Origin: Pseudomonadota bacterium | Lineage (GTDB): Bacteria; Pseudomonadota; Gammaproteobacteria; JAKAQQ01 | Assembly (NCBI GenBank): GCA_027320085.1 | Contig: DAHVLZ010000009.1 | Span: 265,017-329,016 of the forward strand | Reading direction: 5' to 3' | DNA length: 64,000 bases | Shown here: positions 6,717 through 46,737 of the stretch, piece after piece | Position numbering within the stretch: the stretch's first letter is position 1 | Layout of the letters: each line of letters starts with the position of its first letter | Position numbers and translations under genes: made by a program | Notes under the pieces: model-generated | Told to the model about the DNA's origin: nothing | Databases searched by the model: none | Seen by the model: the letters and a program-made list of their open reading frames with translations, nothing else

Positions 6717-6744
6717 CGGAGAAGAAGCATCGAGGATTTTGCGC

Positions 6745-7731: not shown

Positions 7732-7845
7732 TATCCTGTTCCGGAGGGTCTGGAGTCAGCCTCCACCCAGCAACCCGATCATCATCTAGCTCTTGTGTCA
7801 GAAGGGTCCGATGACGAGGGCCAATAGCTAGGGGGCTTTCTGTCT

Positions 7846-9465: not shown

Positions 9466-9676
9466 AAATACCTCCGGAGTTATATTTCTGACTCGTGAGC
9501 CCGTTACTTACTCAAGCTCCGGGCCGTTCTCACTGACTTGGTAACTGCACAACCAGCAAGCTTTCTGGGCTGGCGTCAACCCAGCCGGCCATGATCCCCA
9601 AAACTTCCTGGAGAACAAGGGCCCGCTGATCCTAGCCGAAAGCTAGGGGTTACAGCAAGTCGCCCCCCCATTCGGC

Positions 9677-10282
9677 CTAGCGGACCCGGGTTACGAAAAC
9701 CTGCTCGCCGTATCCTCGCACTTCAAGAACATAGCCAACTATCAATTTTTTGATCTTGACTCTGGGATCAATGAGTTTGGGGATTCGGAAATATCCCGTA
9801 CCGGACTGGACCCATGTCTGTCCATTCATGAGATGGAATCTAGTATTCCCAGTCCATCCCTGGAATACCCCGTCAATCCGGCTCTCGATTTCATTGGGGA
9901 GATGACGATATCGTCTTGGAGGTAATCCGAAGTGAGCCACCCGGCCCTGATGGGCCCTGAGTCGAGACGAAGGAGCGTGGCGTGGTGGTACGATCGGGAC
10001 GGCTGCCCTCGCAGAAACGACCGCCCTACTCATCGCGTGTAGGTGTGCTGCCAACCACCGTTCCAGAGCCTGCCGTTGTTCGGTACTCAAGCGGTCAATC
10101 CCCGCTCGGTCGTAGGCATCCACCGTCATGAGTTTTCTCAGACGTATCCTGGGTGTTGTCGGGGAATGCTTGTGTGCTGCCCACGCTGATGCTCCAACTA
10201 GGCCGGTTGCACAACAGATAACCAAGGTAATGAATATCTTGCCTCTGGGGAGAGAGCGCCATTCCGAGGGCTTGGCATACAT
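9677..10282 (-). CDS. Hypothetical exported protein
   Basis: It has an N-terminal TM/signal segment (IFITLVICCATGLVGASAWA). I recognise no family. It is in the same orientation as its neighbours. Confidence 0.4.
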   Translation of the reverse strand: MYAKPSEWRSLPRGKIFITLVICCATGLVGASAWAAHKHSPTTPRIRLRKLMTVDAYDRAGIDRLSTEQRQALERWLAAHLHAMSRAVVSARAAVPIVPPRHAPSSRLRAHQGRVAHFGLPPRRYRHLPNEIESRIDGVFQGWTGNTRFHLMNGQTWVQSGTGYFRIPKLIDPRVKIKKLIVGYVLEVRGYGEQVFVTRVR

Positions 10283-28881: not shown

Positions 28882-29442
28882 TTATACAAACCGGATGGAG
28901 GGGAGAAGAATATTGATGAAGAACAGGATTGCGAGCGCCAAAAGGGGAGAAAAGTCGAGCCCACCGGTTGCAGGCACGAAACGACGCAAGGGCCGCAGGA
29001 TCGGTTCATTGATGGCATAAAGAAAACTCGTCATGGGATGCTGCACGTAGGGGGGCTGGATCCAACTCATGAGAGCCCCAACGATCAGAGTAAAAATGTA
29101 AAAATCATCCAAGAGAGTTGCACATTTAACGAGTGCGGCGAGTGCGAGCACACCCCCGCTAAGGGGGCGGCCAGCAATCCCGGCCAAGATGGCCACGTCA
29201 AGCCCGCATAGCACAACGGCGACGATAAGACTCCACCAGTCACGGCGCATCACTCGGCTCCCAGACCAATGGTAGAGTGGCTTCAGAACCGGCCATGTCA
29301 ACCGGCCGATGCTCTGTACTACAGGATGGGAGAAGTTGAGAGGTCCCCAGCTCATGGCGAATCGCGAGAGAAAAAGTAGGGCACCGACCGTGAATAGGAA
29401 ATTCACCAGAAAAAGCCAGGCGCTGGACCAGTGCAGAATCAT
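28882..29442 (-). CDS. yggT: YggT-family membrane protein
   Basis: A 186-aa protein with the duplicated YggT TM repeat. It lies immediately downstream of proC, as in many proteobacteria. Confidence 0.75.
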   Translation of the reverse strand: MILHWSSAWLFLVNFLFTVGALLFLSRFAMSWGPLNFSHPVVQSIGRLTWPVLKPLYHWSGSRVMRRDWWSLIVAVVLCGLDVAILAGIAGRPLSGGVLALAALVKCATLLDDFYIFTLIVGALMSWIQPPYVQHPMTSFLYAINEPILRPLRRFVPATGGLDFSPLLALAILFFINILLPSIRFV

Positions 29443-30377: not shown

Positions 30378-31448
30378 ATGCCTGAAGAAGCCATTCGCAT
30401 CCTTGATATAGCCCAGCTTTTGGAGTTCGGCGTACGAAACAACGCCTCCGACCTCCATATTTCCGCCGGCGAGCCCCCGATGATCCGGGTCGATGGAGAC
30501 ATCCGACGAATCAATTTGCCGCCCCTCGATGGAAAGAAAGTGCATGACATGATCTACGACATTATGAACGATAAACAAAGGAAGCACTTTGAGGAATTCA
30601 TGGATTGCGATTTTTCTTTTGAAATCAGTAAGCTAGCACGGTTCCGGGTCAACGCGTTCAATCAACGCAGGGGGCCAGGTGCAGTCTTCCGTACCATTCC
30701 CTCCGATGTCAAGACACTCGAGGATCTCGCCAGTCCGCCGACCTTCAAGGAACTCGTATTGCGACCCCGTGGGCTTGTCCTGGTCACCGGGCCAACCGGG
30801 TCCGGGAAGTCGACGACGCTCGCCGCCATGGTCAACCACGTCAACGAAAGTGTCATGTCCCACATTCTCACGATCGAGGACCCGATCGAGTTCGTGCACC
30901 AATCCAAGAAGTGTATTATCAACCAGAGGGAGATCCATGAGCACGCGCTCGGATTCGCAGAGGCCTTGCGTGCCGGATTGCGTGAAGATCCGGACGTGAT
31001 TTTAGTAGGTGAAATGCGTGATCTCGAAACCATCCGTCTGGCTCTCACAGCCGCCGAAACCGGTCACTTGGTTTTTGCAACCCTGCACACGAGTTCTGCC
31101 GCCAAGACAGTCGACCGTATCGTTGATGTCTTCCCGGCTGCCGAGAAGGATATGGTCCGCACCATGCTTTCCGAGTCACTGCAGGCTGTCATCTCGCAAA
31201 CCTTGCTCAAAAAGGTCGGCGGTGGACGGATTGCTGCCTACGAAATCATGACAGCCACTCCTGCGATCCGCAACCTGATTCGGGAAAACAAAGTAGCCCA
31301 GATGTACTCGGCCATCCAGACTGGGCAGGCACACGGCATGCAAACGTTGGACCAGTGCCTGTCTGAGTTGCTCCGCCGGGGCGCCATCACACGGGAGCAA
31401 GCTCGCATCAAGGCAACCAACAAAGAGCTGTTCGCCCCAGGGGGATAA
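30378..31448 (+). CDS. pilT: Type IV pilus retraction ATPase PilT
   Basis: Identity to PilT is high and near-continuous (MIRVDGDIRRINLPPL, LVLVTGPTGSGKSTTLAAM, AIRNLIRENKVAQMYSAIQTG). Confidence 0.9.
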   Translation: MPEEAIRILDIAQLLEFGVRNNASDLHISAGEPPMIRVDGDIRRINLPPLDGKKVHDMIYDIMNDKQRKHFEEFMDCDFSFEISKLARFRVNAFNQRRGPGAVFRTIPSDVKTLEDLASPPTFKELVLRPRGLVLVTGPTGSGKSTTLAAMVNHVNESVMSHILTIEDPIEFVHQSKKCIINQREIHEHALGFAEALRAGLREDPDVILVGEMRDLETIRLALTAAETGHLVFATLHTSSAAKTVDRIVDVFPAAEKDMVRTMLSESLQAVISQTLLKKVGGGRIAAYEIMTATPAIRNLIRENKVAQMYSAIQTGQAHGMQTLDQCLSELLRRGAITREQARIKATNKELFAPGG

Positions 31449-31451
31449 TTC

Positions 31452-32627
31452 ATGGACCGTGAACAAGCCATTAAGTTCGTCCACGATTTGCTGCGCATCA
31501 TGACCCAGCGCAGAGCCTCGGATCTCTTCATCGCAGCTGATTTCCCACCCGCCATGAAGATTGATGGTGAGGTCAAACCGGTATCCGACCGTCCCTTTAC
31601 TGCGGAACAGTCGGGTGTGATTGTCCGTGCCCTTTTCAATGACCGGCAGTCCCGCGAGTTCGATGCAACCAAGGAAATCAGTTTCGCAATAGCGCCGAAG
31701 GGGATTGGTCGGTTCCGGGTCAGTGCCTACGTCGAACAGGGACGGTTGGGTGCAGTTCTCCGCACGATTAATACACAGGTCCCCACAGTTGCCGAACTTG
31801 AGCTTCCACGGATCCTGGAAGACATCTCTCTCACCAAACGCGGGCTCGTGCTGGTGGTCGGAGCAACCGGCTCGGGAAAATCTACCACTCTGGCGGCTAT
31901 GATCCATCACCGGAATATTGTTGCTCATGACCACATTGTTACCATTGAGGATCCCATTGAGTATGTCCACGGTCATGGATCCTGCCTGGTCACCCAGCGC
32001 GAACTGGGCGTGGATACCGAATCTTGGGGGGCCGCCCTCAAAAATACACTGCGACAAGCGCCTGACGTCATCTTGATTGGGGAGATTCGAGATCCTGAAA
32101 CCATGTCATACGCCGTTGAGTTCGCCGAAACCGGACACCTCTGTCTCAGCACCCTGCATGCCAACAATGCCAACCAAGCGTTGGACCGAATCATTAATCT
32201 CTATCCCAAAGAACGGCGTCAGCAGTTGCTCATGGACCTTTCGCTGAACCTCAAAGCCATGGTCTCCCAGCGCCTCCTCCGACGGGCAAGCGGTACCGGC
32301 CGAGTGGCAGCCTTGGAAATCCTGGTCAACACGCCGTTGGCCGCTGACCTGATCTTCAAGGGTGAAATTGCCGAGCTCAAGGAACTAATGGCAAAGTCAG
32401 TCAACGCTGGTATGCAAACATTCGACCAAGCGATTTTTGACCTTTACGAGAACGGTACCATTAGCTACGAGGAGGCACTCCGCAATGCCGACTCACAGAA
32501 TGAGCTACGCCTCCGGATTAAGCTCGAAAGCAAACGGGCTTCACGACCAGACGATTCCGAGCTTGATCAGCTTCATTTATCGGAACCGGAAACGGCGCAA
32601 CCCAAGTCACTTCGTCCCGGAAAATAA
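31452..32627 (+). CDS. pilU: Type IV pilus ATPase PilU
   Basis: It shows the PilU-type sequence (GIGRFRVSAY, GATGSGKSTTLAAMI, HANNANQALDRI) and has the characteristic C-terminal extension. Confidence 0.9.
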   Translation: MDREQAIKFVHDLLRIMTQRRASDLFIAADFPPAMKIDGEVKPVSDRPFTAEQSGVIVRALFNDRQSREFDATKEISFAIAPKGIGRFRVSAYVEQGRLGAVLRTINTQVPTVAELELPRILEDISLTKRGLVLVVGATGSGKSTTLAAMIHHRNIVAHDHIVTIEDPIEYVHGHGSCLVTQRELGVDTESWGAALKNTLRQAPDVILIGEIRDPETMSYAVEFAETGHLCLSTLHANNANQALDRIINLYPKERRQQLLMDLSLNLKAMVSQRLLRRASGTGRVAALEILVNTPLAADLIFKGEIAELKELMAKSVNAGMQTFDQAIFDLYENGTISYEEALRNADSQNELRLRIKLESKRASRPDDSELDQLHLSEPETAQPKSLRPGK

Positions 32628-32666
32628 TCTCCTGCCAACTCCCCGATACCCTGTCTGGAAACTTAG

Positions 32667-33722
32667 ATGAATCTAGAACCTTATCTGCGCCTGATGGCCG
32701 AAAGAGCCGCCTCGGATTTGTACCTGACCACAGGCTCGCCCATCAAGATCCGAGTCCAAGGGAGAGTTCTATCTGTGGGCCGGACTCCACTCGACGAATC
32801 GATGATCAGGGAAGCGACCCTTGGCATCATGAATGAAGCACTGATCAACCAGTTCGAGAATCGTCACCAAGCTGAATTCCCCCTGGAAATTACCGGAGTA
32901 GGGCGTTACCGGGTGAATGTGTTTCTCGAACGAGGCCGGGTTGCCATGGCCATCCGTTTTATTCCGATCAAGATCCCTGAATTGGACACCTTGGGGTTAC
33001 CTGGAGTTTTGAAGGAGCTGATTCGTGCACCAAGAGGACTCATCCTTGTCGTGGGCGCGACAGGTGCTGGGAAATCCACAACCCTGGCTTCCTTGATTGA
33101 CTACCGTAATGCACACCAGGCGGACCATATTCTCACCATTGAGGATCCCATCGAGTACGTCTACGAAAACCGCCTCTCGATTGTGAATCAACGTGAGGTC
33201 GGGAACGACGTTCTGAGTTACGCAGATGCCTTGCGTAGCGCATTGCGCGCGACACCCGATGTTCTGCTTATTGGTGAAATTCGGGACTCAGAGACCATGT
33301 CTGCCGCAGTTGAAATGGCCGCGACGGGCCACCTCACCTTGGCCACACTCCATACCAGCAATGCCCATCAGACCCTTGAACGGATCCTCAACTTGTACTC
33401 CGAATCGGCCCAGAAACTGGTACTGACTGACCTTTCAATCAACATGCGGGCAATCATCGCCCAGCGGCTGGTTCCCAATGTGGATGCGAAACTGGTTGCA
33501 GCTGTCGAAATCCTGCTCAATACCCCACATATGGCGGACTTGATTCACAAGGGAGAACTCGGTATGTTGCGTGAAGCCATGGAGTCGAGCCATGAAATTG
33601 GAATGCAAACATTCGATACGGCGCTCTACCAGCTCTACCGGGACGGCATCATTGACCTCAAGACCGGACTGAACTATGCCGATTCCCGAACCAACCTTGA
33701 AAACAAGATCCGTTTCGGCTGA
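32667..33722 (+). CDS. Third PilT/PilU-family ATPase paralog (PilU-like)
   Basis: A 351-aa protein with Walker A GATGAGKSTTLASL and the His box HTSNAHQTLERI. It is closest to the PilU subfamily. Confidence 0.85.
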   Translation: MNLEPYLRLMAERAASDLYLTTGSPIKIRVQGRVLSVGRTPLDESMIREATLGIMNEALINQFENRHQAEFPLEITGVGRYRVNVFLERGRVAMAIRFIPIKIPELDTLGLPGVLKELIRAPRGLILVVGATGAGKSTTLASLIDYRNAHQADHILTIEDPIEYVYENRLSIVNQREVGNDVLSYADALRSALRATPDVLLIGEIRDSETMSAAVEMAATGHLTLATLHTSNAHQTLERILNLYSESAQKLVLTDLSINMRAIIAQRLVPNVDAKLVAAVEILLNTPHMADLIHKGELGMLREAMESSHEIGMQTFDTALYQLYRDGIIDLKTGLNYADSRTNLENKIRFG

Positions 33723-35742
33723 ATATTCAACCGTCCCCGTATCTCTCCGCATCATTCCAAGAGTTCTGGGAGTCGGGAGCCTTGTCGCGCTTTGCCTGCT
33801 ACCGGCCTTCGGAGCCGGCCCCACCAAGACGATAAAGAGTGGCACTTCCCTTGTTGCGCCCGGCTTTGCCAATTCCCGCGCCATCCATGTCAGTCTATCC
33901 CCCAACGGCCATTGGCTGGCCATCGCAGGGTATTTCGGTGCTGCCCACCAAGAAGGACTGGCTCTCCTCAACCTGAGGGAGCCCCGCTATGACCAGCGCC
34001 TGCACGTAGTCCGCAAAAGCCAGATCAACCATCTACGGTGGGCAGGGCCCCACGTTCTGCTAGCCACGACCCGGATCAAGCTGCCAGGCTACCGCAAAAC
34101 CCTTCGGAGTGGAGAGATTTGGGCCATCCACCTGATTCATCATCACGCCCAAAGTAGCCTCCTTGCCGGATATCGGAAACAAGGCCTTGCGTTCAACATC
34201 GCTATTTACCTGATCCTGTCCCCACTCGACCATGATCCAGACCGGGTGGTAGTCGAGCGCTATTCTTCCGTTGACCTTGCACCGGAGACCGACATCCTAA
34301 ATGTCCAAACCGGCCTCATGCTGCGTGGGATCCATAGTCCACTGACAAACGGACAACTATTAACCGACAACGACGGGCATGTGCGTCTAGCCTTCGGTAC
34401 GAACGCACTCACCGGACAAATCGAGTTATGGTTCCGGAAACCACATACCCTGGAATGGAAGAATTTGAGCTTTCTCCTCAAGAACTTTGGGCCGGCATCA
34501 AATGTGAGACCCCTCGGGTTTCTACCTGGCAATCGCCACTTTTACCTCCTCCGGACCAGTCATTACGGCACCCTTGGGCTTTATGCCGTAAACCCTGACA
34601 ACGGGAGAGAAACCCGGCTCTATGTCAATCCCAAAAACGATATCCTGAGGATTGCCCGGTCGCCCTCCGGGCGGGTTTATGCGGTCTGGGTGGGGATCCA
34701 GAAACCACACTGGGTTGTGATTGCCCCCAAAAACCGCGAAGCCGAATGGCTTAGATTACTTTCACCGGTCTTCCGCAACCAGCGGGTCACCATCCGGGAC
34801 GTCACCCGTGATCGCACCATGGCTTTGATCCGCGTCCGGGGAGATCGCAATGCGGGAGAATACTATCTCTTCGATCCCAAAAGACACCTCTTGCGATATC
34901 TCCTGAGTACACAACCGGGAATAGCGCCACCTGAACTGTCTTCTTGGCACACGTTCATGCTCCCTTGGCGTGGCCTCAAAGAACCGGTCTATCTGGCTTA
35001 TCCGCACGGTCCGGCCCGTGACCGCAAGGGTTTGGTCGTCTGGATCCATGGGCACCCCTTCGAGGAAGGCATACGCTGGCGTTCTGATCCTCGCCTCCAA
35101 GAACTCACACGCCATGGTTTCGTAGTTATGGAAGTTGACTACCCGGGTTCCTTTGGCCGTGGGAAAGTCTGGCGCCAACTGGGGTACCACCAATGGGGTA
35201 GAACCATGCTGGATGGGATCTGGGCCGCAGTTCGCTGGGTGGCTGGACAGCACGGGATCCCCTTTGGCCGGCTGGCTCTGGCAGGGCATGGTTACGGCGG
35301 ATATGCCGCACTCATGCTCGGAGCCGAGCACCCCAGGCAGGTTCGGGCAATCGTGAGCCTGAACGGCATTTATGAACTGTCGTTGCTGAGAACGCCTGAG
35401 GAGCGATTATGGCGTTCGCCTTTTGGCAGGCGGTTCCTGAATACGGTACTTGGGCATCAACACCTCAATGCCGACTCTCCTCTTGCCCGTGCCCGATCAA
35501 TACGTGCACCAGTTTTCCTGATCCATGGAGGAAGAGACTCCAGGGATCCTTCCGGTGGAGAAAACCATCTTGTATTGATCCTCAAAGAACACTCTGTTCT
35601 GGTCCGGCTCCTTGAAGAACCCACCCAAGGCTGGCATTTCACAGGCGCTCGCACCCGCTCCAAGATTTGGCGTGGGATCGCAACTTTCCTGAACCAGGCA
35701 TTTGCGTCAGGGTCTCCCCTCACCCCGATCCACCGTGACTGA
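33676..35742 (+). CDS. Prolyl-oligopeptidase (S9) family homolog with beta-propeller N-domain; nucleophile Ser replaced by Gly
   Basis: The catalytic-domain elbow reads GHGYGG instead of GxSYGG (Gly codon ggt at 35290-35292). Asp (HGGRDSRD) and His (GWHF) are retained. There is an N-terminal signal-like segment. The start is uncertain because of a 47-nt overlap with the upstream gene. Confidence 0.65.
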   Translation: MPIPEPTLKTRSVSAEYSTVPVSLRIIPRVLGVGSLVALCLLPAFGAGPTKTIKSGTSLVAPGFANSRAIHVSLSPNGHWLAIAGYFGAAHQEGLALLNLREPRYDQRLHVVRKSQINHLRWAGPHVLLATTRIKLPGYRKTLRSGEIWAIHLIHHHAQSSLLAGYRKQGLAFNIAIYLILSPLDHDPDRVVVERYSSVDLAPETDILNVQTGLMLRGIHSPLTNGQLLTDNDGHVRLAFGTNALTGQIELWFRKPHTLEWKNLSFLLKNFGPASNVRPLGFLPGNRHFYLLRTSHYGTLGLYAVNPDNGRETRLYVNPKNDILRIARSPSGRVYAVWVGIQKPHWVVIAPKNREAEWLRLLSPVFRNQRVTIRDVTRDRTMALIRVRGDRNAGEYYLFDPKRHLLRYLLSTQPGIAPPELSSWHTFMLPWRGLKEPVYLAYPHGPARDRKGLVVWIHGHPFEEGIRWRSDPRLQELTRHGFVVMEVDYPGSFGRGKVWRQLGYHQWGRTMLDGIWAAVRWVAGQHGIPFGRLALAGHGYGGYAALMLGAEHPRQVRAIVSLNGIYELSLLRTPEERLWRSPFGRRFLNTVLGHQHLNADSPLARARSIRAPVFLIHGGRDSRDPSGGENHLVLILKEHSVLVRLLEEPTQGWHFTGARTRSKIWRGIATFLNQAFASGSPLTPIHRD

Positions 35743-37831
35743 ATCCGGCGTGGGAATCGACAAACCCCCAACCCCCAAGGCCCGCAAACCGCTGCCCCCG
35801 GACGCTGAATCCTTCATTTCGGAAATCGTCCGCTGGGGGTTTCATGGACTTGAAGATCTGCTGTTTGATCTCCCGCTGCGCTACGAAGACGAAACCCAAA
35901 TCACACCCATCGGGGCACTGGCACCAGGTCAGTCCGCGTTGGTCCAGGGAAAAGTTGAACTAGCCGATATCCGATACATACCTCGTCGTCAGCTGTTATG
36001 CCGCATTGCCGATGGAAGCGGTCACTTGCACCTACGGTTCTTTCACTTTTACAACTCGCAACATGTCGGATTTAAGCGAGGTTTGACGGTCCGGGCATTT
36101 GGCACCCTACGGGAAGGTGGGCTGGGCCGGGAGTTTATCCATCCGCGATACCGGGTTTTCAAGGGCAGTCTGCCTCCGCTTAAACGGAACCTGACCGCAG
36201 TCTATTCCAAGCGGGCCGGAGTGGAGTCGCGCCATCAGGAACGACTGATTGCCATGGCACTCGACCTCATGGAACAAAAACAGCTCGAACTACCCGATCA
36301 TCTACCTCCTACACTAATCCGGCCATGGGCTTCCTGCAGTCTTCTGGAAGCACTGCGTGGTGTACACCAGCCCCCAGCTGGCCTCCCACTGGAATCACTC
36401 GAGAATTGGCTCAAACCTTATCAAAGGCGACTGGCCTTTGAGGAACTGCTCGCTCATGCCTTGTCACTGCGAAAAATCCGAATGGTCTGGGAACGTGCAC
36501 GAAGCCACCCTCTTACTATTCCCGCCAAACCACTGGCCCATTTTCTCAAAACCCTGCCCTGGGAATTGACCGGAGCCCAGCAACGTACTTGGCATGAGAT
36601 CGAATGCGACCTCTCCAGTGGAAAACCCATGCTCCGGCTTCTACAGGGAGATGTCGGTTCCGGGAAAACCCTGCTTGCCATTCTGGCCGCTTGGGCTACT
36701 TTGATAAATCGAGGACAGGTCGCCGTGATGGCCCCGACCGAACTCCTCGCTGACCAGCATTACACCACCTTTCAGAGATTTCTTTCCCCACTGGAGAAAC
36801 CTGTTCTGAGACTGGCTTCCCGCTCCCCGAAAAGCCAGCGACGCCTGATTCTGGAGTGCCTTGCCGCGGGCACACCCTGTGTGGTTATCGGAACTCAAAA
36901 CCTGTTCCAAAATGAAGTCGTCTTTGGCCATCTGACGACCGTCATCATTGATGAACAGCACCGATTCGGAGTCGAACAACGTCTGGATCTGGTCAACAAA
37001 GGCACCCGGACACGCCCCCACCAACTCATCATGACGGCCACACCGATCCCCCGTACCTTGGCGATGTCACTGTATGCAGGCCTGGATCAATCTCGTCTCG
37101 ACGAACTCCCACCGGGTCGCCAAGGGATCTCGACAACGATTTTCCCAGCCGAGCGACGCGCTGAAATCATGTCGCGGCTGCAGGCATTGTGTGAGAAAGG
37201 TCAGCGAATCTTCTGGGTATGCCCAAGAATCGAGGAAAACGAGGGTTCCGGTGGCCGTGCGGCAGAAACAGCGCTTGAGGACCTCCGAAGGACTCTTCCC
37301 CAACTTCCCGTAGGCCTGCTACATGGACGGGTTGGCGGTCCTGAGCGACAGCAGATCATTGAGGGATTCCGGGATGGTCGGATCCCGATTCTCGTCAGCA
37401 CGACTGTCGTCGAAGTCGGAGTTGATATCCCGGAAGCGACAGTCATGGTAGTTGACGGCGCGGAGCGATTGGGCCTCTTGCAGTTGCATCAGCTGCGTGG
37501 CCGTGTTGGCCGAGGGTCACAGCCGGGCCAATGCCTGTTGATCTATGAAACCCTTTCTCCGGATGCCCGTTCACGTCTTGAGGTCATGCGGCAAAGCAGT
37601 GACGGGTTTTGGATTGCGGAACAGGATCTTGAAATCAGAGGGCCGGGTGAGATCTGGGGGGCGCGGCAGAGCGGAGGATTGAACTTCCGCGTTGCCCAGC
37701 TTTACCGGGACCGAGACCTCCTTACACTCATTCCTGAGGCCACCCAAAGGCTGGCTAACGAAAATCCTGAGACCATTGAACCTTTGGTCGCTCGCTGGAT
37801 AGGAGGAGACCTGCGTTTCGGCAGTGCCTGA
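35702..37831 (+). CDS. recG: ATP-dependent DNA helicase RecG
   Basis: It has a wedge domain plus SF2 helicase motifs (GDVGSGKT, DEQHRFG, TATPIPRT, QLRGRVGRG) over ~700 aa. Confidence 0.85.
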   Translation: MRQGLPSPRSTVTESGVGIDKPPTPKARKPLPPDAESFISEIVRWGFHGLEDLLFDLPLRYEDETQITPIGALAPGQSALVQGKVELADIRYIPRRQLLCRIADGSGHLHLRFFHFYNSQHVGFKRGLTVRAFGTLREGGLGREFIHPRYRVFKGSLPPLKRNLTAVYSKRAGVESRHQERLIAMALDLMEQKQLELPDHLPPTLIRPWASCSLLEALRGVHQPPAGLPLESLENWLKPYQRRLAFEELLAHALSLRKIRMVWERARSHPLTIPAKPLAHFLKTLPWELTGAQQRTWHEIECDLSSGKPMLRLLQGDVGSGKTLLAILAAWATLINRGQVAVMAPTELLADQHYTTFQRFLSPLEKPVLRLASRSPKSQRRLILECLAAGTPCVVIGTQNLFQNEVVFGHLTTVIIDEQHRFGVEQRLDLVNKGTRTRPHQLIMTATPIPRTLAMSLYAGLDQSRLDELPPGRQGISTTIFPAERRAEIMSRLQALCEKGQRIFWVCPRIEENEGSGGRAAETALEDLRRTLPQLPVGLLHGRVGGPERQQIIEGFRDGRIPILVSTTVVEVGVDIPEATVMVVDGAERLGLLQLHQLRGRVGRGSQPGQCLLIYETLSPDARSRLEVMRQSSDGFWIAEQDLEIRGPGEIWGARQSGGLNFRVAQLYRDRDLLTLIPEATQRLANENPETIEPLVARWIGGDLRFGSA

Positions 37832-37913
37832 TTCCGATGCCGAGGTTCGTGACTATAATAACTGGATCTCCAGCATCACTCTTGCGTTTCGGAACCATTT
37901 GGTTTTCTCCTGT

Positions 37914-38484
37914 TATGAAACAACAATTTTTACAGAGTCATGGCTGGCATCAACCGGAGTGGTGGAGTAGCGCTCGTGACGACCCAGTCTGGCCGTGGCT
38001 TACTGACGAAGGTTCTCTGACCGCAAAGCTCAGAAAATGGGCAGGAGAACATCTCCGTTTGGTTCCATTTATGGAAGTACACACGGCTTTCGATTCGGAT
38101 GACATGCGCTTTCTTGGCTCGTCCACATCCGTTGCCGGACTCCGTCGTGAGGTCGCTTTTTTTTCGGAGTCGGAACCCTGGGTATTTGCCTCCACCCTGA
38201 TTCCAGACGAAACACTCAAAGAGGAGCCTTGGTTAGTTCATCTCGGAACCACTCCGCTTGGCGATCGTTTGTTTGGAGAAAAAAGGGGTCAGCGGATCAG
38301 GCTCGAAATCGCCCAGATCCGGACTGGGCACCCGCTCTATGAAGCATCCCGCTGCCAACTGGGCCGCCTACCCACCTGGTTTTGGGCACGTCGCTCACTT
38401 TTCCGAGTGGGCCACCATTCACTCATCGTCCAGGACGGCTTCATAGGATTCAGGGCCCCCTGGAGAGGAACTTCGATCCTCTGA
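37914..38484 (+). CDS. ubiC: Chorismate pyruvate-lyase
   Basis: WLTDEGSLTAKL and LGTTPLGDRLF match the UbiC motifs (LLEDSMTKRF and LGKTPLGRYLF in E. coli). The start is taken at MKQQF. Confidence 0.6.
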
Positions 38485-38617
38485 ATCCCATCCCGTCCAG
38501 ATTTGGCATCCGTGAGCCAGTGCTATAGGATAGCGGGCACATACTGGAGATTTTAATTCCAGTTCACTCCCAACTCGGCCGTGATGGCCCCTCCCCAGCA
38601 ATGCAGGAGAGTGCACC

Positions 38618-40156
38618 GTGCGACAAATCGTCAAAAACAGTTTACTGGTCGTTTTGAGCGTGACTTCAGCCGGAGCTTGGGCACGCCTGCCAGTTCATGA
38701 ACCCGTCGCTCCTGCCCACCCGATTCTCGGGCGCCGCATTGTCAGCCACGGGGTGGTTGTGGTGGATGGCCGCCGCATCCCTTATACGGCAACCGCGGGA
38801 ACTCTTATTCTCAAAAACAAAAAGAACCAGCCAACAGCTAGCATGTTTTATGTGGCCTATACCCGTTCTGGCGTCCGCCACCTCTCGCAGCGACCGATCA
38901 CATTCGTCTACAACGGTGGACCTGGTTCATCCTCCGTATGGCTACTCATGGGTGGACTCGGTGCTGTCCGGGTTGTCACAGCCAACGCTCGGGTCACCCC
39001 GCCACCACCTTACCCCGTGATTTCCAGCCCATCGAGCCTGTTACCGGTCACCGATCTGGTATTCATTGATGCTGTTGGCACCGGATACAGCCATGTGGTT
39101 GGGGTTGGCCGGGACAAAGATTTCTGGGGAGTCGATGACGACGTGCGCTCTTTTGGACAATTTATTGAGCGCTACATCAGCCAGAACAACCGCTGGAACT
39201 CACCCAAGTTCCTGCTTGGAGAAAGCTATGGGACCACCCGATCGGCCAATCTTGTGGATTACCTCGAGGGGCAAGGAATCACCTGTAATGGCGTGATCCT
39301 GCTTTCCTCTATCTTGAACTACGGGGATTCCTGGCCCGGTACCGATCTGCGTTACATAACCTACCTGCCTTCCTATACGGCAGTCGCCTGGTATCACCAT
39401 GCCTTGCCTGAGCAACCGGCACATCTTGCCCCTCTCATCCGCAAGGTCGAGCAGTTTGCCCGAACCTCCTACGCTTATGCCCTTTTCCAGGGGAGTCGTC
39501 TCAGCCCGGCCAAGAAAGCTGCCGTTCTGGCCACGCTGCATCAATATACAGGCCTCAGTACCGGCTTTCTCGAGGCGGTCCACCTACGGGTCACTCCGGA
39601 CCGTTTTAGAGCGCAACTGCTAAGAGATCGAGGCCGTGAACAGTTTGTTGGCCGGCTTGATGCACGCTTCACAGGGATCAATCGGGATGGGGCCGAGGAA
39701 TCCCCGGACTACGGGGCGCTCATGGCCGCCGTTTCGCCCGCTTTCACGGCGGCATTCAACTGGTATGTCCGCGAACGCCTGCATTACAGCGCTCATCGCG
39801 CCTATCGGGTGATGAACGGGCAGGTTATCCAGAAGTGGAACTGGAATCACCGGTTTCCGGGAGCTGGTTACTCCTGGCCCTTGCCTGATGTTGCACCCAA
39901 CCTGGCGGATGCGATGAGGAAAAACCCCTATCTCCAGATTTTTTCAGGCAATGGATATTTTGACCTCGCAACACCGTTTTACAAGACCGAGTTCGACTTT
40001 GCCCATATGAAACTCCCTCATCGCCTCATGACACGAATCCATTTTCACTTCTACCACTCCGGGCATATGCTCTACCTTCACCCAGCCACCCTGGCTCATC
40101 TTGACCGCAATCTGATCCAGTTCTATCACATGGTTCTTGCCAGAGATCACCAGTAA
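38618..40156 (+). CDS. Peptidase S10 (serine carboxypeptidase) family protein, secreted
   Basis: It has a signal peptide and the GESYGT nucleophile motif (canonical S10 GESYAG). The overall alpha/beta carboxypeptidase length is ~510 aa. Confidence 0.65.
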   Translation: MRQIVKNSLLVVLSVTSAGAWARLPVHEPVAPAHPILGRRIVSHGVVVVDGRRIPYTATAGTLILKNKKNQPTASMFYVAYTRSGVRHLSQRPITFVYNGGPGSSSVWLLMGGLGAVRVVTANARVTPPPPYPVISSPSSLLPVTDLVFIDAVGTGYSHVVGVGRDKDFWGVDDDVRSFGQFIERYISQNNRWNSPKFLLGESYGTTRSANLVDYLEGQGITCNGVILLSSILNYGDSWPGTDLRYITYLPSYTAVAWYHHALPEQPAHLAPLIRKVEQFARTSYAYALFQGSRLSPAKKAAVLATLHQYTGLSTGFLEAVHLRVTPDRFRAQLLRDRGREQFVGRLDARFTGINRDGAEESPDYGALMAAVSPAFTAAFNWYVRERLHYSAHRAYRVMNGQVIQKWNWNHRFPGAGYSWPLPDVAPNLADAMRKNPYLQIFSGNGYFDLATPFYKTEFDFAHMKLPHRLMTRIHFHFYHSGHMLYLHPATLAHLDRNLIQFYHMVLARDHQ

Positions 40157-40171
40157 ACCGGTTCGCAGGAG

Positions 40172-41611
40172 ATGCTGGATATGCGCCGAACCATTGCTGC
40201 GTCACAAACTCTAGACAGGGATGCGGTCGGGTTCTGGCAACTGACCTACCAGTCTATCTCGCTGATTGCTCCGGCTGGCGCGATGGCAGCAACCTTAACC
40301 GGTGCCGCCGTCTATGCGCGGGGCGCTCTGCCCTTGGCCATGCTGGCCGGCGTCATCACGGCGGGCCTCATGATCAATACCACTCTCCAGTTTGCAAAAT
40401 CGATTGCCTCAGCGGGCGGGTTTTATAGCTATATTGCCCACGGACTGGGAAGCCGATGGGCAGTTTACGGGGCCTTCCTATTTCTCATTTCCTACTTCAA
40501 CATCTTGACCAATGCCACTATTTTCGTTGGTGGGGTTTTCCTCCCTGGTACCCTCCACCATTTCTTGGGCATTGCTTCCCCGGGGTGGCTTTGGTGGCCG
40601 GTTACTCTCCTATTTTATGGGGTGGTTCTCCTGCTGGCACTCAAGGGGATCCGCCCTTCACTGCGTTATGCAGTCTGGACCGGGACTGCCGAAATTGTTG
40701 TTCTTCTCGTCCTGTCGATCCTGCTGATCATCCAATCTCCGAATCCTGTGACTTGGGAAGTGCTGAACCCGTTCTGGGCCAAGGGTGGCTTGAGCGGCTT
40801 CGGACATGGGGTCCTGATCGCCATGTTCGCCGTTTCCGGATCCTCGGCAGCAGTCGCATTGGGCGAGGAAACACGATCTCCCCAAAAGCGCATCCGCGGA
40901 GCTGTGATCGCAGCTTTTTTCTTCTCGTCCGTATTGTTCCTGCTCATGGCTTATGCTTTGACGGTAGCCTGGGGTTATACCCGAATGGGCAGTTTTGCCC
41001 AGTCGCTTGTTCCTGGAGCAATCCTTGTCCAGGAGGTGCTGCATTCGCCCGTCTTGGCCTGGCTTATCCTTCTGTTGATCGCAAACTCGATGCTCGCGGG
41101 CAGTCTAGCGCCGCTGCTCAGTTGCGCACGGATGATCTTTGCTCTTGGCCGTGATGGGGTCGTTTTTCCGGAACGGTTGGGACAAACCGATGCACGGCGC
41201 AATCCGTCACAGGCCCTGATTGTGACCACGCTCGCTGCCGCTGCTCTTTCCTTGTGTACCGGATTCTGGCTGGGCCCATTTCATGGCTACATCTTGCTCA
41301 TCACCTTGAGCAGCCTGGGACTCTTCTTGGGTCATATCCTGGCCAACTGTGCACTCGGACCATTCGCTCGCAGGACAGGACATAGCCACTGGCTCCTTCA
41401 CTGGGTGATTCCGGCAATGGCCTCACTGCTCATTGCCGCTGCCATGGTCCTGACGCTGGTTCCCATTTCAGCCCGAATTGCGCTGGCCCCTCTTTTTATT
41501 CTTCTCACTCTCGGCATCGTCTGGTTGCGTTTACGCCGAGCATCACCGGAGAAAATTGCTGCAGCCGGTCGCCTCAATGTGATCGACGAAATTTCCTCTC
41601 CCACGCTTTAA
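40172..41611 (+). CDS. APC-superfamily permease
   Basis: A 479-aa protein with about 12 TM helices. Confidence 0.7.
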   Translation: MLDMRRTIAASQTLDRDAVGFWQLTYQSISLIAPAGAMAATLTGAAVYARGALPLAMLAGVITAGLMINTTLQFAKSIASAGGFYSYIAHGLGSRWAVYGAFLFLISYFNILTNATIFVGGVFLPGTLHHFLGIASPGWLWWPVTLLFYGVVLLLALKGIRPSLRYAVWTGTAEIVVLLVLSILLIIQSPNPVTWEVLNPFWAKGGLSGFGHGVLIAMFAVSGSSAAVALGEETRSPQKRIRGAVIAAFFFSSVLFLLMAYALTVAWGYTRMGSFAQSLVPGAILVQEVLHSPVLAWLILLLIANSMLAGSLAPLLSCARMIFALGRDGVVFPERLGQTDARRNPSQALIVTTLAAAALSLCTGFWLGPFHGYILLITLSSLGLFLGHILANCALGPFARRTGHSHWLLHWVIPAMASLLIAAAMVLTLVPISARIALAPLFILLTLGIVWLRLRRASPEKIAAAGRLNVIDEISSPTL

Positions 41612-41742
41612 ATCCAAACCCCATCAGAAACAACCCCACGACCGGGCGCATACACCCCCCCCTCCGCCCTTGACCCGGGTCTAACCGCCCACCAAAAAAC
41701 GGGGCAATTACACAAAGCGGCTTGAACAGTATGGGCAGCCGT

Positions 41743-42228
41743 TCAGTTCAGCGGTTGAACGCGGACGGTACCGTCCGGAGAATAGAGAACCTGGACCCGT
41801 TCACCACTGGTCCAAGTGGTATGACCCTGTTGCTGAACAACCGCCATCAGGCGCCCGCTGTCCAGACGAACCGTCAGCTGTACACCCGGCACTTTTCCGG
41901 TCGAATGACCAATGGCGTTTCCCGCAAGGGCACCGAGTACCACCCCGCCGACCGTGGCCAACGCCGCCCCGCGTCCACCACCAATCGCACTGCCCGCAAT
42001 CCCGCCAGCCACTCCACCAACCACGGTTCCAATCTGGCCATTCGTGATCTGTCCTTGTGCTTGTCCTCCTGAAATGGTGACAAAACGGACTGCCACTAGG
42101 GTACCCAAGCGTACGCGCTGAATCGTCCGCGCCTCACCCCGGTAATAGGAACTGCCTCCCAAATTACTAGCACATCCAGCGAGCAAAACAGCTGCCACTA
42201 AAGCAGGGAAAAACAATAACTTGCGCAT
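41743..42228 (-). CDS. Glycine-zipper outer-membrane lipoprotein (SlyB/PCP-like)
   Basis: The lipobox is LLAGC. A Gly-zipper segment follows (GTVVGGVAGGIAGSAIGGGRGAALATVGGVVLGALAGNAIG). The start is the MRKLLFF Met. Confidence 0.65.
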   Translation of the reverse strand: MRKLLFFPALVAAVLLAGCASNLGGSSYYRGEARTIQRVRLGTLVAVRFVTISGGQAQGQITNGQIGTVVGGVAGGIAGSAIGGGRGAALATVGGVVLGALAGNAIGHSTGKVPGVQLTVRLDSGRLMAVVQQQGHTTWTSGERVQVLYSPDGTVRVQPLN

Positions 42229-42346: not shown

Positions 42347-45145
42347 CTAATGTCCTTTGCCACTTTCGTAGGCTGACAACGGGGCCTTGCGTCGCGCGGC
42401 GTACCGCTTGAGGTAGGCCATAACCATCTCATAAGATCTCAAGCCCTTGCTCGCGACCCATTCCTGCCTCATTTGCTCCGGACCCGAAACCTTGAGCAGG
42501 GTGGTTGGCGAATAGGATTGCCATGGATTAGGGGCCGGATCTGCGCCTGTCCCGGAGTGCCGTACCTGTCGTGCCCGATACCAAGCTTTCCAGTTAGGTG
42601 GCAAATTATGACCATTGACTCCAGCTTCCCGTCGCATCAGCGTGTAATGGCTGCAAGCTCCGGCGTTGAAAGCCAGTTGGACCTGCATCGGCAGAACCGG
42701 GGTCGGCGCGAAGTCCGGATGGCGGGTCCACAGGCCGGAGAAAACGCGGGCATTCTGATCCCATTGCGATAGGGCCGGAAGATCAAAAATCGCCTCCACG
42801 GTTTTTAGGATATTGACCTGCGAGTAAAGATGTGTTTCCAGGTGATTTCTTTTGACCCAAGGCCCGACCGCAAGAGCCAGTGTGCGATGGGCATTGATGT
42901 GATCTGCGCCTGACTGGGCATCGTCCTCAGTCACAAATACAACCATGTGTCTCCACTGAGGCGTGGTCGACAGGTAATGAATGAAACGGGCAGTTGCATG
43001 GTCGTTGTTGGCAACGTAGTAATCCGGCGTGTAATAACAAGGTGAACGGCCGGCTGTATGGTCATCCGGTAGCCAAATATAGATAAAATGCGGGAAACGG
43101 GAGCCGGGATGAGCTTTGAGCCAATCCACTGACCGTCGCACTCGGTAGGTATCGAGAAGCATGCGGTCCCATCCTGGTACTTGTATGGCCAAGTGCTTCC
43201 TCATCGCTGCGGAAATGTTGCCTGCCTCAGATCGGGAGACAAACTCGCCAAAGTCCTCGAATGACACCCGATGGGCGAGAAGATCGTTGAAAAGAAACAG
43301 ACGGCCTGGATAACTGATCCAGGGATTGGACCAAACACCCAGTGCCGAAAGGTTTTCATAGATCGCGTACGGATTGTCCACCCCGAGGGGCATTCCGCCT
43401 GTCCCAGTGGCCCCGCCCGGAATCAGGGACTGCGTCCATCCGGGATTGGCAACCAGTCCCCGGCCCGAATAGTACTCCGGCCAAGTCCGCTGCACGAAAT
43501 CGGAATCAGACGCGGCAGTTGTCCATTGGTGACCTTGCGCAGTCACTTCCCCATCCGCCATGAAATTCACGAACAGTGTCCCTCGATGCGCGAGGTTGTA
43601 AAGATTGGGAAGCTCACGCGCCCCATAGAGGTCTAGGTGGGGGTCGGCCCAATGCCCGGCCGGGCGGTAATCGCCCAGATCCTCGTCGAAAGTTTTATTT
43701 TCCCTCAGAATAAAAACCACATACCGGATATGCCGGCGCAACCAGTGGGCGGTTTGCTGATTAGCCTGATGGCGAGTTGTTCGCTGCAGCCTCGCAAAGC
43801 CATCATTCCGAAGGACGTCACGGGTCCATCGGGACCCGTGACGTGAGAGCGTGGCAAGGTCAATCTTCTGTACGAGCCCACCCATCATGTCACCCACCCA
43901 TTGGTGCTCGACATTGGGTCCGGAACCCAAGCCCTTAGCGGAGGCAATGTACAACGTTCCTTTCCGGACCGCCAGCGAAGTTGGATACCACCCGGTCGGA
44001 ATCAGTTCTTGTCGCTTTCCAGTTTTGAGGGAGAACACGGCAACGTCGTTGTTACCGGCATTCGCTACGAAAATCCGGTCTCTTGCCACAGCCAAGGCAT
44101 CAGGATAGCTACCAGGGGCTGAGTCTAGATATGGGCTGTCATCCAGCACGTCCATCTCCCTGAGAGAAAGGACATTTACACGGGCTACTTGGTCCACGTT
44201 CGATAGGGCAACCAGTACATCAGGGGTTCCTGGAATGGTGGCCAGGGCAGTTGGATGAATCCCGGCACGAGTGTTCCCCGGACCCGTGGACGGCCCAAGC
44301 CGTATGGTCCCTGCGAGTCTCAGATTTCGGGGTTTCACTATCGCCACCCGGTCACTCCCCCAGAGACTCACGACGAGCCGCCGTCCTTCATCGGCAAAAG
44401 TCAGGGCGAATGGATACGGGCCTACATTGAGGTAGCGCACATGACCGTTCTTGAGGTCGATACGCGCGAGACTATTCGCCAAAAGACCACTCACGAAGAG
44501 ATGAAGACCACGCGGGCCTGCTGCAATCGCATCGGGGTAGAACAGACGATGCGAGATAGCGTGATGTCCAGCGTAATGGTAAGGGTACTGGCGGCTGGGA
44601 AAAGCTTGCCATGCCAGGGGATAGCGCCGGAGAACTACGACGTGCCCACCGCGCCGGACCAAGGCCAATACATCGTCACTGACTCCCCCTGCCACAAAGA
44701 GTCTCCTCCCATGCACACTGACAGCCATGCCCTGAAAAAAACTTTGGTGCCCAACCGCTGTCTTGTCGCCTCTCGTGCCCCTCCTCATACGATGTGACGG
44801 TCCCTTGGTTGCCACGAGTTGGGTCATCTCCTTCAACGACTCGGCGGAGTAGAGAGTGACATCTTGGACGCGGGTAGCACCGTTATTGAGAACAGCCACG
44901 TCAGGTCCCCAAGACAGGAGAGCCGTGACAAAGTTCTGCGTTCCCTGGATACGGCCCCGAGGAGAAACTATGCGCCCGGTCGGCAGTACATGTGAGAAGC
45001 GGGCAGCATTGGCTTCTCCTACCACAACCGGTCCGATCACATTCTTGCTGTTGGGTACGGGCGCCGCGAGGGCCTGAAACGACAGGACAGTGGCGGCAGC
45101 AGCCCCACACAAGGCAAGGATCCTCGGGGATCTCAAAAATTTCAT
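42347..45145 (-). CDS. Secreted fusion: N-terminal beta-propeller domain + C-terminal phosphoesterase (PLC/AcpA family)
   Basis: A signal peptide MKFLRSPRILALCGAAAATVLSFQALA is present. The N-terminal half is a beta-propeller, and the C-terminal half carries the phosphoesterase-family motifs (YVVFILRENKTFDEDLGDY ... VVFVTEDDAQSGADHINAHRT). Confidence 0.7.
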   Translation of the reverse strand: MKFLRSPRILALCGAAAATVLSFQALAAPVPNSKNVIGPVVVGEANAARFSHVLPTGRIVSPRGRIQGTQNFVTALLSWGPDVAVLNNGATRVQDVTLYSAESLKEMTQLVATKGPSHRMRRGTRGDKTAVGHQSFFQGMAVSVHGRRLFVAGGVSDDVLALVRRGGHVVVLRRYPLAWQAFPSRQYPYHYAGHHAISHRLFYPDAIAAGPRGLHLFVSGLLANSLARIDLKNGHVRYLNVGPYPFALTFADEGRRLVVSLWGSDRVAIVKPRNLRLAGTIRLGPSTGPGNTRAGIHPTALATIPGTPDVLVALSNVDQVARVNVLSLREMDVLDDSPYLDSAPGSYPDALAVARDRIFVANAGNNDVAVFSLKTGKRQELIPTGWYPTSLAVRKGTLYIASAKGLGSGPNVEHQWVGDMMGGLVQKIDLATLSRHGSRWTRDVLRNDGFARLQRTTRHQANQQTAHWLRRHIRYVVFILRENKTFDEDLGDYRPAGHWADPHLDLYGARELPNLYNLAHRGTLFVNFMADGEVTAQGHQWTTAASDSDFVQRTWPEYYSGRGLVANPGWTQSLIPGGATGTGGMPLGVDNPYAIYENLSALGVWSNPWISYPGRLFLFNDLLAHRVSFEDFGEFVSRSEAGNISAAMRKHLAIQVPGWDRMLLDTYRVRRSVDWLKAHPGSRFPHFIYIWLPDDHTAGRSPCYYTPDYYVANNDHATARFIHYLSTTPQWRHMVVFVTEDDAQSGADHINAHRTLALAVGPWVKRNHLETHLYSQVNILKTVEAIFDLPALSQWDQNARVFSGLWTRHPDFAPTPVLPMQVQLAFNAGACSHYTLMRREAGVNGHNLPPNWKAWYRARQVRHSGTGADPAPNPWQSYSPTTLLKVSGPEQMRQEWVASKGLRSYEMVMAYLKRYAARRKAPLSAYESGKGH

Positions 45146-45330: not shown

Positions 45331-46737
45331 ATGTTTATTATTTATCATTGTCACACTTCGGCAACATATCTAAATTCAATGCCCTCATCTGTTTCAGATA
45401 AACCCTCTCAACCCCGAGGATCGGGATGGCGCATCTTTCTACTCCTTGCCGTTGCCGGAATTGCCACCATTCCGGCTGCCGTAGCCAAAGTAACAGCTAA
45501 ACATCACCCGCAGCATCGCCTTTCTCTTGGTAGTGCGGGTACGCTAACCGGTCGCTTCCGGGACTATGACTTCTCCCGTTGGTACGAGAACTCCGCTGCC
45601 CCAATCGATCAGCATGCCAACGGTCTGGCCGGCCTTTTCAATTTCCGTTCAAGGCGTTTTGGCGGTCACTGGCGCGGGTATGCCAGTTTCTATGTAGCGA
45701 CCGATCTTTTCGGAATCAACAACTCCCAGATGGATTATCGCGCCCTGGACACCACACTCTTCGGAACCCATACTCTGCAAAGTCTTGGTCAAGCCTACCT
45801 GACCTACCAGCAGGCAGGGTTTCAAATCGGTGGCGGTGCCTTCCCTCTCAACACGCCCTGGATGGGATCCTCGGATTCGCGGTTGATCCCGGCAACCTAC
45901 GAAGGATTTTTCGGACGATGGAACCCGGCACCAGGTTGGACCCTGGAGGCCATACGCGAGTTTCGCTGGAAGAGCCGAACGTCGTCGCGTTTCTCGGCCA
46001 CCAACCTCTATAATTCCGCCGGGGTTGCCGGGATCTACGGAGGTACACCGGACCCGACGGTCGGCGGTACCCGAAACCCGGGCACATTTGCTTTGGGATC
46101 CACTTGGGCCTGGAAGACCGTCCGGGCCGATCTCTGGTACTACGATTTCTACCACTTTGCTCAGATGGCCTACGGCAGCGGATCGCTCCACCTTTCCCTG
46201 CAAGGCACTGATTTTCTCATTATCGGGATACAGGGGCTCCGTGAGTGGAGCCAGAACTCCACCTCTCTCGGAGTCCCCGTGGCGAGCTCGGCTTACGGGG
46301 CGGAGGTCGGTCTGGGGTTCAGCGCCAGCCGTTTGATCCTGAGCTATGATCGGATCCCGCGCGCGGTGACCGGGTTTAGGAACGGAGGTGTCGTCTCACC
46401 CTACACTTCGGGATACGCGACTGACCCCCTCTACACCACCTCCATGACAGCCGGCCTCGTTGAGAAAGGTCCAGGACAGGCGCTTAAACTGGCTTGGATC
46501 CAGTTTTTTGAGCACTCCTTCCGGGTCATCCTGAGCGAAGCTGGCTACTGGACCACCCCGGCTTATCCCAACACACACGAGACTGATATCGACGTGACTT
46601 GGTTTGCAGGAGGTCCCTGGAGAGGCCTGTCAATCAGAAACCGCCTGGGTATCGTGACGGGCATCAACGGGCAATACGGAACTCCGGACCTCGGAACGTT
46701 TCTCTACGAGCGTCTCATGCTCCAGTACCGGTTTTGA
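45331..46737 (+). CDS. Outer-membrane beta-barrel porin (OprD- or OprO/P-like; family uncertain)
   Basis: It has a signal peptide, alternating amphipathic strands and a C-terminal aromatic residue (…LQYRF). Confidence 0.5.
   Translation: MFIIYHCHTSATYLNSMPSSVSDKPSQPRGSGWRIFLLLAVAGIATIPAAVAKVTAKHHPQHRLSLGSAGTLTGRFRDYDFSRWYENSAAPIDQHANGLAGLFNFRSRRFGGHWRGYASFYVATDLFGINNSQMDYRALDTTLFGTHTLQSLGQAYLTYQQAGFQIGGGAFPLNTPWMGSSDSRLIPATYEGFFGRWNPAPGWTLEAIREFRWKSRTSSRFSATNLYNSAGVAGIYGGTPDPTVGGTRNPGTFALGSTWAWKTVRADLWYYDFYHFAQMAYGSGSLHLSLQGTDFLIIGIQGLREWSQNSTSLGVPVASSAYGAEVGLGFSASRLILSYDRIPRAVTGFRNGGVVSPYTSGYATDPLYTTSMTAGLVEKGPGQALKLAWIQFFEHSFRVILSEAGYWTTPAYPNTHETDIDVTWFAGGPWRGLSIRNRLGIVTGINGQYGTPDLGTFLYERLMLQYRF

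Follow-up and report, generated by a model that had tools for sequence, protein, structure and literature searches.

The gene at positions 38618-40156 of the window (the whole stretch analyzed here, 64,000 nucleotides of contig DAHVLZ010000009.1 from a Pseudomonadota bacterium) encodes a protein that almost certainly belongs to peptidase family S10. The full mechanism that we favor, with a probability of roughly 0.6, is that of an exported S10 serine carboxypeptidase, periplasmic or secreted, that supplies amino acids for uptake. The enzyme, a clan SC protein of alpha/beta-hydrolase fold that bears a helical cap, would be exported through the Sec pathway and relieved of its signal peptide, leaving the mature form periplasmic or extracellular. 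With His483 and Asp449 activating it, Ser203 would attack the last peptide bond of a substrate, while Asn99, the backbone of Gly100 and Glu202 would hold the substrate's free C-terminal carboxylate (compare Asn51, Gly52 and Glu145 of yeast CPY). C-terminal amino acids would thereby be freed singly and in succession and, in the genus of the window, probably be imported by the APC permease whose gene lies 15-24 nt downstream. The gene and the elements relevant to this scheme are:

38605-38609, plus strand: Shine-Dalgarno-like AGGAG, 8 nt 5' of the GTG start, read directly in the sequence
38618-40156, plus strand: open reading frame (ORF) of the S10 gene, 512 amino acids, GTG start
38618-38683, plus strand: predicted Sec signal peptide, residues 1-22, MRQIVKNSLLVVLSVTSAGAWA, with putative cleavage after AWA
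38684-40156, plus strand: mature S10-family alpha/beta-hydrolase, residues 23-512, and stop codon
38912-38926, plus strand: N99-G-G-P-G103 motif, aligned to CPY NGGPG (N51-G52-G53; C-terminal carboxylate binding and oxyanion hole)
39218-39235, plus strand: nucleophile elbow G201-E202-S203-Y204-G205-T206 (S203 codon, 39224-39226)
39962-39964, plus strand: catalytic Asp449 in the motif N-G-Y-F-D-L-A-T-P, aligned to CPY D338
40064-40066, plus strand: catalytic His483 in the motif S-G-H-M, aligned to CPY H397

The ORF represents a genuine gene rather than a chance reading frame, since homology and hidden Markov model (HMM) searches retrieved thousands of full-length homologues of its product. It lies on the plus strand exactly where the original prediction had placed it, with the GESYGT motif at residues 201-206. 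The identical protein is found in several assemblies, including the metagenome-assembled genome GCA_021828425.1 from NCBI, and the 90% cluster to which it belongs bears the JGI name carboxypeptidase C. An Rfam search of the window gave no match.

The family assignment is directly supported by several comparisons. Peptidase_S10 (PF00450) is the sole Pfam family whose curated gathering cutoff the protein exceeds (33.8 bits, with 21.9 required; E 3.2e-8), the match being confined to residues 69-207 (profile positions 19-148 of 420); precomputed annotation places the same domain in nearly every one of the 120 homologues listed. No NCBIfam model matched the protein, and a phmmer search with the single sequence found nothing relevant among PDB sequences. 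A 21-sequence profile matched two PDB sequences over the N-terminal part only: Kex1 (the best, E 8e-9) and sorghum hydroxynitrile lyase, both of the S10 fold. Aligned to CPY alone or to a fungal CPY profile, this shallow profile covered only the N-terminal half, with His483 recovered as a separate weak collinear match and the Asp unmapped. A deeper bacterial profile was therefore compared, combining the window protein with 137 representatives that share 32-46% identity with it (n=138), against a profile of the fungal CPY family whose mature yeast CPY query is identical at 421/421 positions to PDB 1wpx/1ysc. In hhalign the two profiles aligned with 98.1% probability (E 1.2e-13) from residue 42 to 500 of the window protein and 3 to 416 of CPY, that is, with homology over the whole domain of the characterized type enzyme. 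The predicted structure has the alpha/beta-hydrolase fold with the S10-type helical insertion, and its closest fold matches are S10 structures. Together these results bear out the claim that the protein is an S10 homologue.

That it could instead belong to another family of alpha/beta-hydrolase peptidases (S33, S9, S15 or S28) is highly improbable. Such an assignment could appeal to the partial coverage by the Pfam S10 model and to a weak match to Hydrolase_4 (S33; E 1.2e-4), but the latter scored 22 against a cutoff of 27, and the four families were ruled out by Pfam, by the CPY profile alignment and by the fold comparison. A best HMM match in a different hydrolase family, named in the original prediction as an outcome that would overturn it, was not seen.

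Residues were mapped by counting columns in the deep profile-profile alignment, and conservation was counted over the 138 representatives. The catalytic Asp and His, which the original prediction had proposed to look for, both occupy S10 positions. S203 corresponds to CPY S146 (kept in 138/138), D449 to D338 (136/138) and H483 to H397 (137/138), so ordered Ser, Asp, His. In the AlphaFold2 (AF2) model S203 lies between strand 197-202 and helix 204-218, D449 three residues past strand 440-446, the canonical position of the acid, and H483 after strand 474-479. The G-E-S-Y-x-G and N-G-G-P-G motifs, which carry the direct carboxylate ligands (CPY Asn51, Gly52 and Glu145) and the oxyanion residues (Gly53 and Tyr147), are likewise present: N99, G100 and E202 match CPY N51, G52 and E145 and are kept in 133, 137 and 132 representatives, respectively, G101 in 137, and Y204 (CPY Y147) in 135. 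M484, the counterpart of CPY M398, is kept in 121. Judging from these residues, the protein is very probably catalytically active.

The N-terminus, MRQIVKNSLLVVLSVTSAGAWA followed by RLP, has the look of a Sec signal, as had been proposed: two basic residues, a hydrophobic core (Kyte-Doolittle 2.1 over residues 9-19) and an A-x-A site. No lipobox was found in it. A similar hydrophobic N-terminus occurs in 113 of the 135 family representatives that start with Met, and a lipobox-like motif in only 2 representatives. Residues 1-35 are disordered in the AF2 model, with a predicted local distance difference test score (pLDDT) below 50. Genes for a TonB-dependent receptor and for PilT-like ATPases are also present in the window, indicating that the host cell is diderm. 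Most likely the protein resides in the periplasm or outside the cell.

The flanking genes are those named in the original prediction:

37837-38484, upstream of the S10 gene: chorismate lyase homologue (ubiC; Pfam Chor_lyase, E 5e-22)
40181-41611 (alternative start 40172), plus strand: APC-superfamily amino-acid permease (Pfam AA_permease, E 4.5e-28)

The permease most likely starts at 40181: an AGGAG sequence at 40167-40171 lies 9 nt before this ATG, and the position agrees with a 476-amino-acid gene call in a related locus (L001). The distance from the S10 stop codon to the permease start is 15-24 nt (24 nt for the start at 40181). Promoter and terminator scans over 37700-41900 returned counts not above those of shuffled controls; the only result used from them is the absence of a terminator-like site in the S10-permease gap. 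Co-transcription of the two genes is plausible.

The ubiC-S10-permease arrangement was found only in the same species and in a sister species whose protein is 88% identical, where the S10-permease pairing is kept; a tblastn search detected no UbiC or APC homologue of the window type within 5 kb at any of 80 other related loci (0/80). A functional link between ubiC and the S10 gene was dropped on these grounds, and ubiC is probably irrelevant to it. Neighbors were counted over 82 non-redundant related loci, ignoring several clusters from the ORF-based analysis that proved to be spurious antisense ORFs in GC-rich DNA. The recurrent ones are:

Additional S10 copies, in tandem: 21/82 loci
M1 aminopeptidase: 16/82 loci, 14 of them directly downstream, same strand
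UbiE: 10/82 loci, 9 upstream and 1 downstream, same strand
PepQ prolidase: 8/82 loci, upstream, same strand
PF04185 phosphoesterase: 8/82 loci, downstream, same strand

Among relatives of 55-69% identity, the S10 gene opens a run of three tandem paralogues, often lying just 3' of a PepQ (M24) prolidase gene; at 69% and 66% identity it heads a three-paralogue array adjoining PepQ. Such arrays span 5001-9733 in locus L087 and 5001-9765 in L089, and are also present in L006, L009, L010, L016 and L026. The M1 neighbor combines Peptidase_M1 and ERAP1_C domains (representative, L038:1640-4276), which suggests that M1 aminopeptidase and S10 form an exopeptidase gene pair. The hint at amino-acid scavenging in the original prediction fares unevenly. 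Its stated basis, the ubiC/permease context, is weak, being limited to one genus; the M1, PepQ and tandem S10 neighbors of the relatives, on the other hand, make a better case for a role in peptide breakdown than the single ubiC/permease neighborhood does. Apart from these exopeptidases, relatives (for example L064, L078 and other Xanthomonadales-type loci) often have UbiE upstream and the PF04185 phosphoesterase downstream. The window offers a parallel, with UbiC upstream and a 932-amino-acid protein with a C-terminal PF04185 match encoded two genes downstream; the likeness may be remnant synteny or coincidence.

Several observations weigh against an exported carboxypeptidase that feeds amino-acid uptake. 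Pfam and single-sequence searches cover just the N-terminal third of the protein. The pairing with the permease is confined to one genus. The literature searched held no biochemical characterization of a bacterial S10 enzyme, and hence no reported activity in this clade. An intact triad cannot tell peptidases from acyltransferases or lyases of the S10 fold. CPY Glu65 aligns to G113, in a column that has 0 Asp or Glu over the 138 representatives (mainly Ala, Ser and Gly), and CPY Trp49 aligns to V97, a variable hydrophobic position. Finally, the lineage of the window departs from the family consensus at L110, A116, S137 and G366.

In CPY, mutagenesis has shown that Asn51 and Glu145 touch the substrate carboxylate directly, with Glu65 and Trp49 in support. 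Glu65 is invariant in the CPY family and present in both Kex1 and the sorghum hydroxynitrile lyase. The pair Glu65 and Trp49, which provides hydrogen-bond support to Glu145 and Asn51, is a hallmark of the characterized eukaryotic S10 carboxypeptidases and not a criterion of the family; the window protein has neither. Their conserved disulfide framework is missing too, because the mature protein contains a single Cys; the CPY family has many invariant Cys residues, and CPY C56 aligns to S104. The bacterial clade has invariant residues of its own for which the CPY motifs hold no counterpart: R208 (138/138), on the helix after the nucleophile, and D348 (138/138) and R350 (131/138), in a loop of the cap. 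With the direct carboxylate ligands kept and the supporting ones lost, carboxypeptidase chemistry is still the most likely, and pH dependence or specificity could differ.

These same features could be taken to indicate an S10-fold protein that is not a peptidase at all, but an esterase, lactonase or acyltransferase, comparable to the plant serine carboxypeptidase-like (SCPL) acyltransferases, with a non-peptide acyl substrate in the envelope. SCPL acyltransferases retain the catalytic triad, and one of the two PDB sequence matches, the sorghum hydroxynitrile lyase, is itself an S10-fold non-peptidase; the absence of Glu65 and Trp49 equivalents and the clade's own R208, D348 and R350 point the same way. 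Nevertheless, the equivalents of the carboxylate ligands Asn51, Gly52 and Glu145 are kept in 132-137 of the 138 representatives, the recurrent neighbors are peptidases (M1, PepQ and S10 paralogues) rather than genes of lipid or secondary metabolism, and an amino-acid permease adjoins the S10 gene in the window. A non-peptidase function is therefore improbable. It can be proposed, quite tentatively, that the bacterial S10 clade binds its substrate differently from eukaryotic S10 enzymes, having lost the Glu65/Trp49 half of the site and all disulfides and gained R208, D348 and R350. The C-terminal carboxylate might then be bound through arginine, with activity at neutral pH; alternatively, the clade might have specialized in short peptides or non-peptide acyl groups.

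The four departures from consensus affect positions conserved in 80-99% of the family:

38945-38947: H110L, family His in 110/138
38963-38965: P116A, family Pro in 137/138
39026-39028: N137S, family Asn in 134/138, matching CPY Asn80
39713-39715: D366G, family Asp in 132/138

Taken alone, these replacements might suggest that the window lineage carries a degenerate, inactive copy. This is very improbable given that the triad, oxyanion and carboxylate residues are intact and the full-length ORF is preceded by a ribosome-binding site. Moreover, the 88% sister species has the same four substitutions and several assemblies carry the identical protein, a pattern indicative of purifying selection.

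The narrow distribution of the permease pairing bears on a further alternative, a true S10 carboxypeptidase dedicated, like Kex1, to a specific envelope or secreted substrate, with the permease adjacent by accident. Kex1 is the best PDB sequence match, and in an acid-adapted mutant of Z. mobilis the annotated peptidase S10 ZMO1291 (placed by annotation only) is truncated by a W485* mutation, hinting at a role beyond nutrition (PMC7427070). Nutritional peptide breakdown nonetheless accounts better for the tandem arrays, which comprise up to three paralogues, and for the linkage with exopeptidases of broad specificity, and no conserved candidate substrate gene adjoins the S10 gene. Dedicated processing thus seems unlikely, and an exported carboxypeptidase supplying amino acids for uptake remains the preferred interpretation.

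Relatives of the protein are far more numerous than the original prediction, which described bacterial members as sparse, had assumed. The first homology search gave at least 8,000 candidates, full-length proteins of about 510 amino acids. An exhaustive HMM search over representatives of 50%-identity clusters matched 2,801 clusters at E<=1e-30, 6,907 at E<=1e-10 and 10,071 at E<=1e-3, and relatives occur in at least 584 species-representative genomes. Among the matches listed are Gammaproteobacteria (Rhodanobacter, Dyella, Rudaea, Nevskia and Alteromonas), Paraburkholderia, Sphingobium, Acidobacteriota, Gemmatimonadota, Eremiobacterota and Opitutaceae, with names in NCBI and JGI such as "S10 family peptidase", "peptidase S10" and "carboxypeptidase C (cathepsin A)". 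The window protein is an ordinary member of this large, already annotated clade. In some family representatives the S10 domain lies within giant multidomain proteins of 2146-2579 amino acids (P0288, P0292 and P0293), and two others of 1011 amino acids (P0273 and P0283) appear to be tandem double-S10 fusions.

The further claim that bacterial members are essentially uncharacterized agrees with the literature searched, which offers only annotations and proteomic detections. A substrate of type II secretion in B. pseudomallei (PMC4713064) and a protein released by Asaia bogorensis (PMC12502724) are annotated as peptidase S10, in both cases placed by annotation only; S10 is not mentioned in PMC6411800. 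Conserved peptidase S10 proteins with signal peptides, again by annotation only, were described in Kangiella, where the authors, in view of the acidic optimum that S10 enzymes have in eukaryotes, considered their function "still unclear" (PMC6000758).

The window protein shares about 13-18% identity with yeast CPY (PDB 1ysc/1wpx; MEROPS S10), from which it differs in lacking equivalents of Glu65 and Trp49, in carrying a bacterial Sec signal where CPY has a vacuolar propeptide, and in a longer and divergent cap region (about 244-436) with its own invariant D348 and R350. Identity to human and mouse cathepsin A (protective protein; PDB 4mws and 7kdv_B) is 13-15%; the role of the latter in a lysosomal multienzyme complex is impossible in a bacterium, and there is no sign in the window protein of the excision peptide that activates cathepsin A. 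With yeast Kex1 (PDB 1ac5) the sequence match extends over just 146 N-terminal positions of the profile. That processing enzyme is anchored to the membrane in the Golgi and is specific for basic residues, a specificity for which the window protein gives no indication. The closest likeness is to the bacterial "S10 family peptidase" or COG "carboxypeptidase C (cathepsin A)" proteins of, for example, Rhodanobacter, Dyella, Rudaea, Paraburkholderia, Acidobacteriota and Kangiella, with 46-60% identity across about 90% of the length, a shared architecture of about 510 amino acids and the same invariant residues. The window lineage differs from these relatives at the four near-invariant positions listed above and in having ubiC-S10-APC permease where they have tandem S10 arrays with PepQ or M1.

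Other genes of the window were noted in passing. The 932-amino-acid protein (42347-45145, minus strand) has a signal peptide, with Pfam coverage only at residues 710-790 (Phosphoesterase) and no family assignment for its first 700 or so residues. Two genes upstream of the S10 gene, 33676-35742 (plus strand) encodes an S9 prolyl-oligopeptidase-family protein of 688 amino acids with an N-terminal hydrophobic segment; its end overlaps by 8 nt the probable start of RecG at 35735. The RecG frame spans 35702-37831 (plus strand), and the start at 35735 (698 amino acids; exact match to database protein P0400) is preferred to the first TTG at 35702. By its RecG the source is an uncultured gammaproteobacterial lineage: RecG identity is 79-100% within the genus, 60% to a group of metagenome-assembled genomes labeled "Gammaproteobacteria bacterium", and at most 50% to named taxa. 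Three T2SSE/PilT-like ATPase genes follow one another at 30378-33722 (plus strand; 356, 391 and 351 amino acids), and a second APC-type amino-acid permease is encoded at 7846-9465 (minus strand). The ORFs at 21563-23413 (616 amino acids) and 45331-46737 (468 amino acids), both on the plus strand, have no Pfam match at E<=1e-5. The sole RNA gene found in the window is a 93-nt tRNA-Leu at 29102-29194 (minus strand).

The annotation of the window gene is routine, its 90% cluster and its family having already been named by JGI and NCBI. Most worth notice is that Glu65, Trp49 and the disulfides are lost and that invariant Arg and Asp residues specific to the clade are present, a combination that might mean an altered pH dependence or specificity. 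If arginine binding and activity at neutral pH were indeed features of the clade, they would answer the puzzle raised for the neutrophilic Kangiella. As a carboxypeptidase free of disulfides and amenable to bacterial expression, such an enzyme could also be of use. The bacterial S10 clade is large and exported, and in bacteria of soil and sediment it is often expanded in tandem beside exopeptidases of the M1 and M24 families. Characterizing one of its members would reveal how it works in the absence of the Glu65-Glu145 pair, which is considered to bind the S10 enzymes of eukaryotes to acidic compartments, and whether serine carboxypeptidases are used by bacteria in the extracellular turnover of protein and nitrogen.
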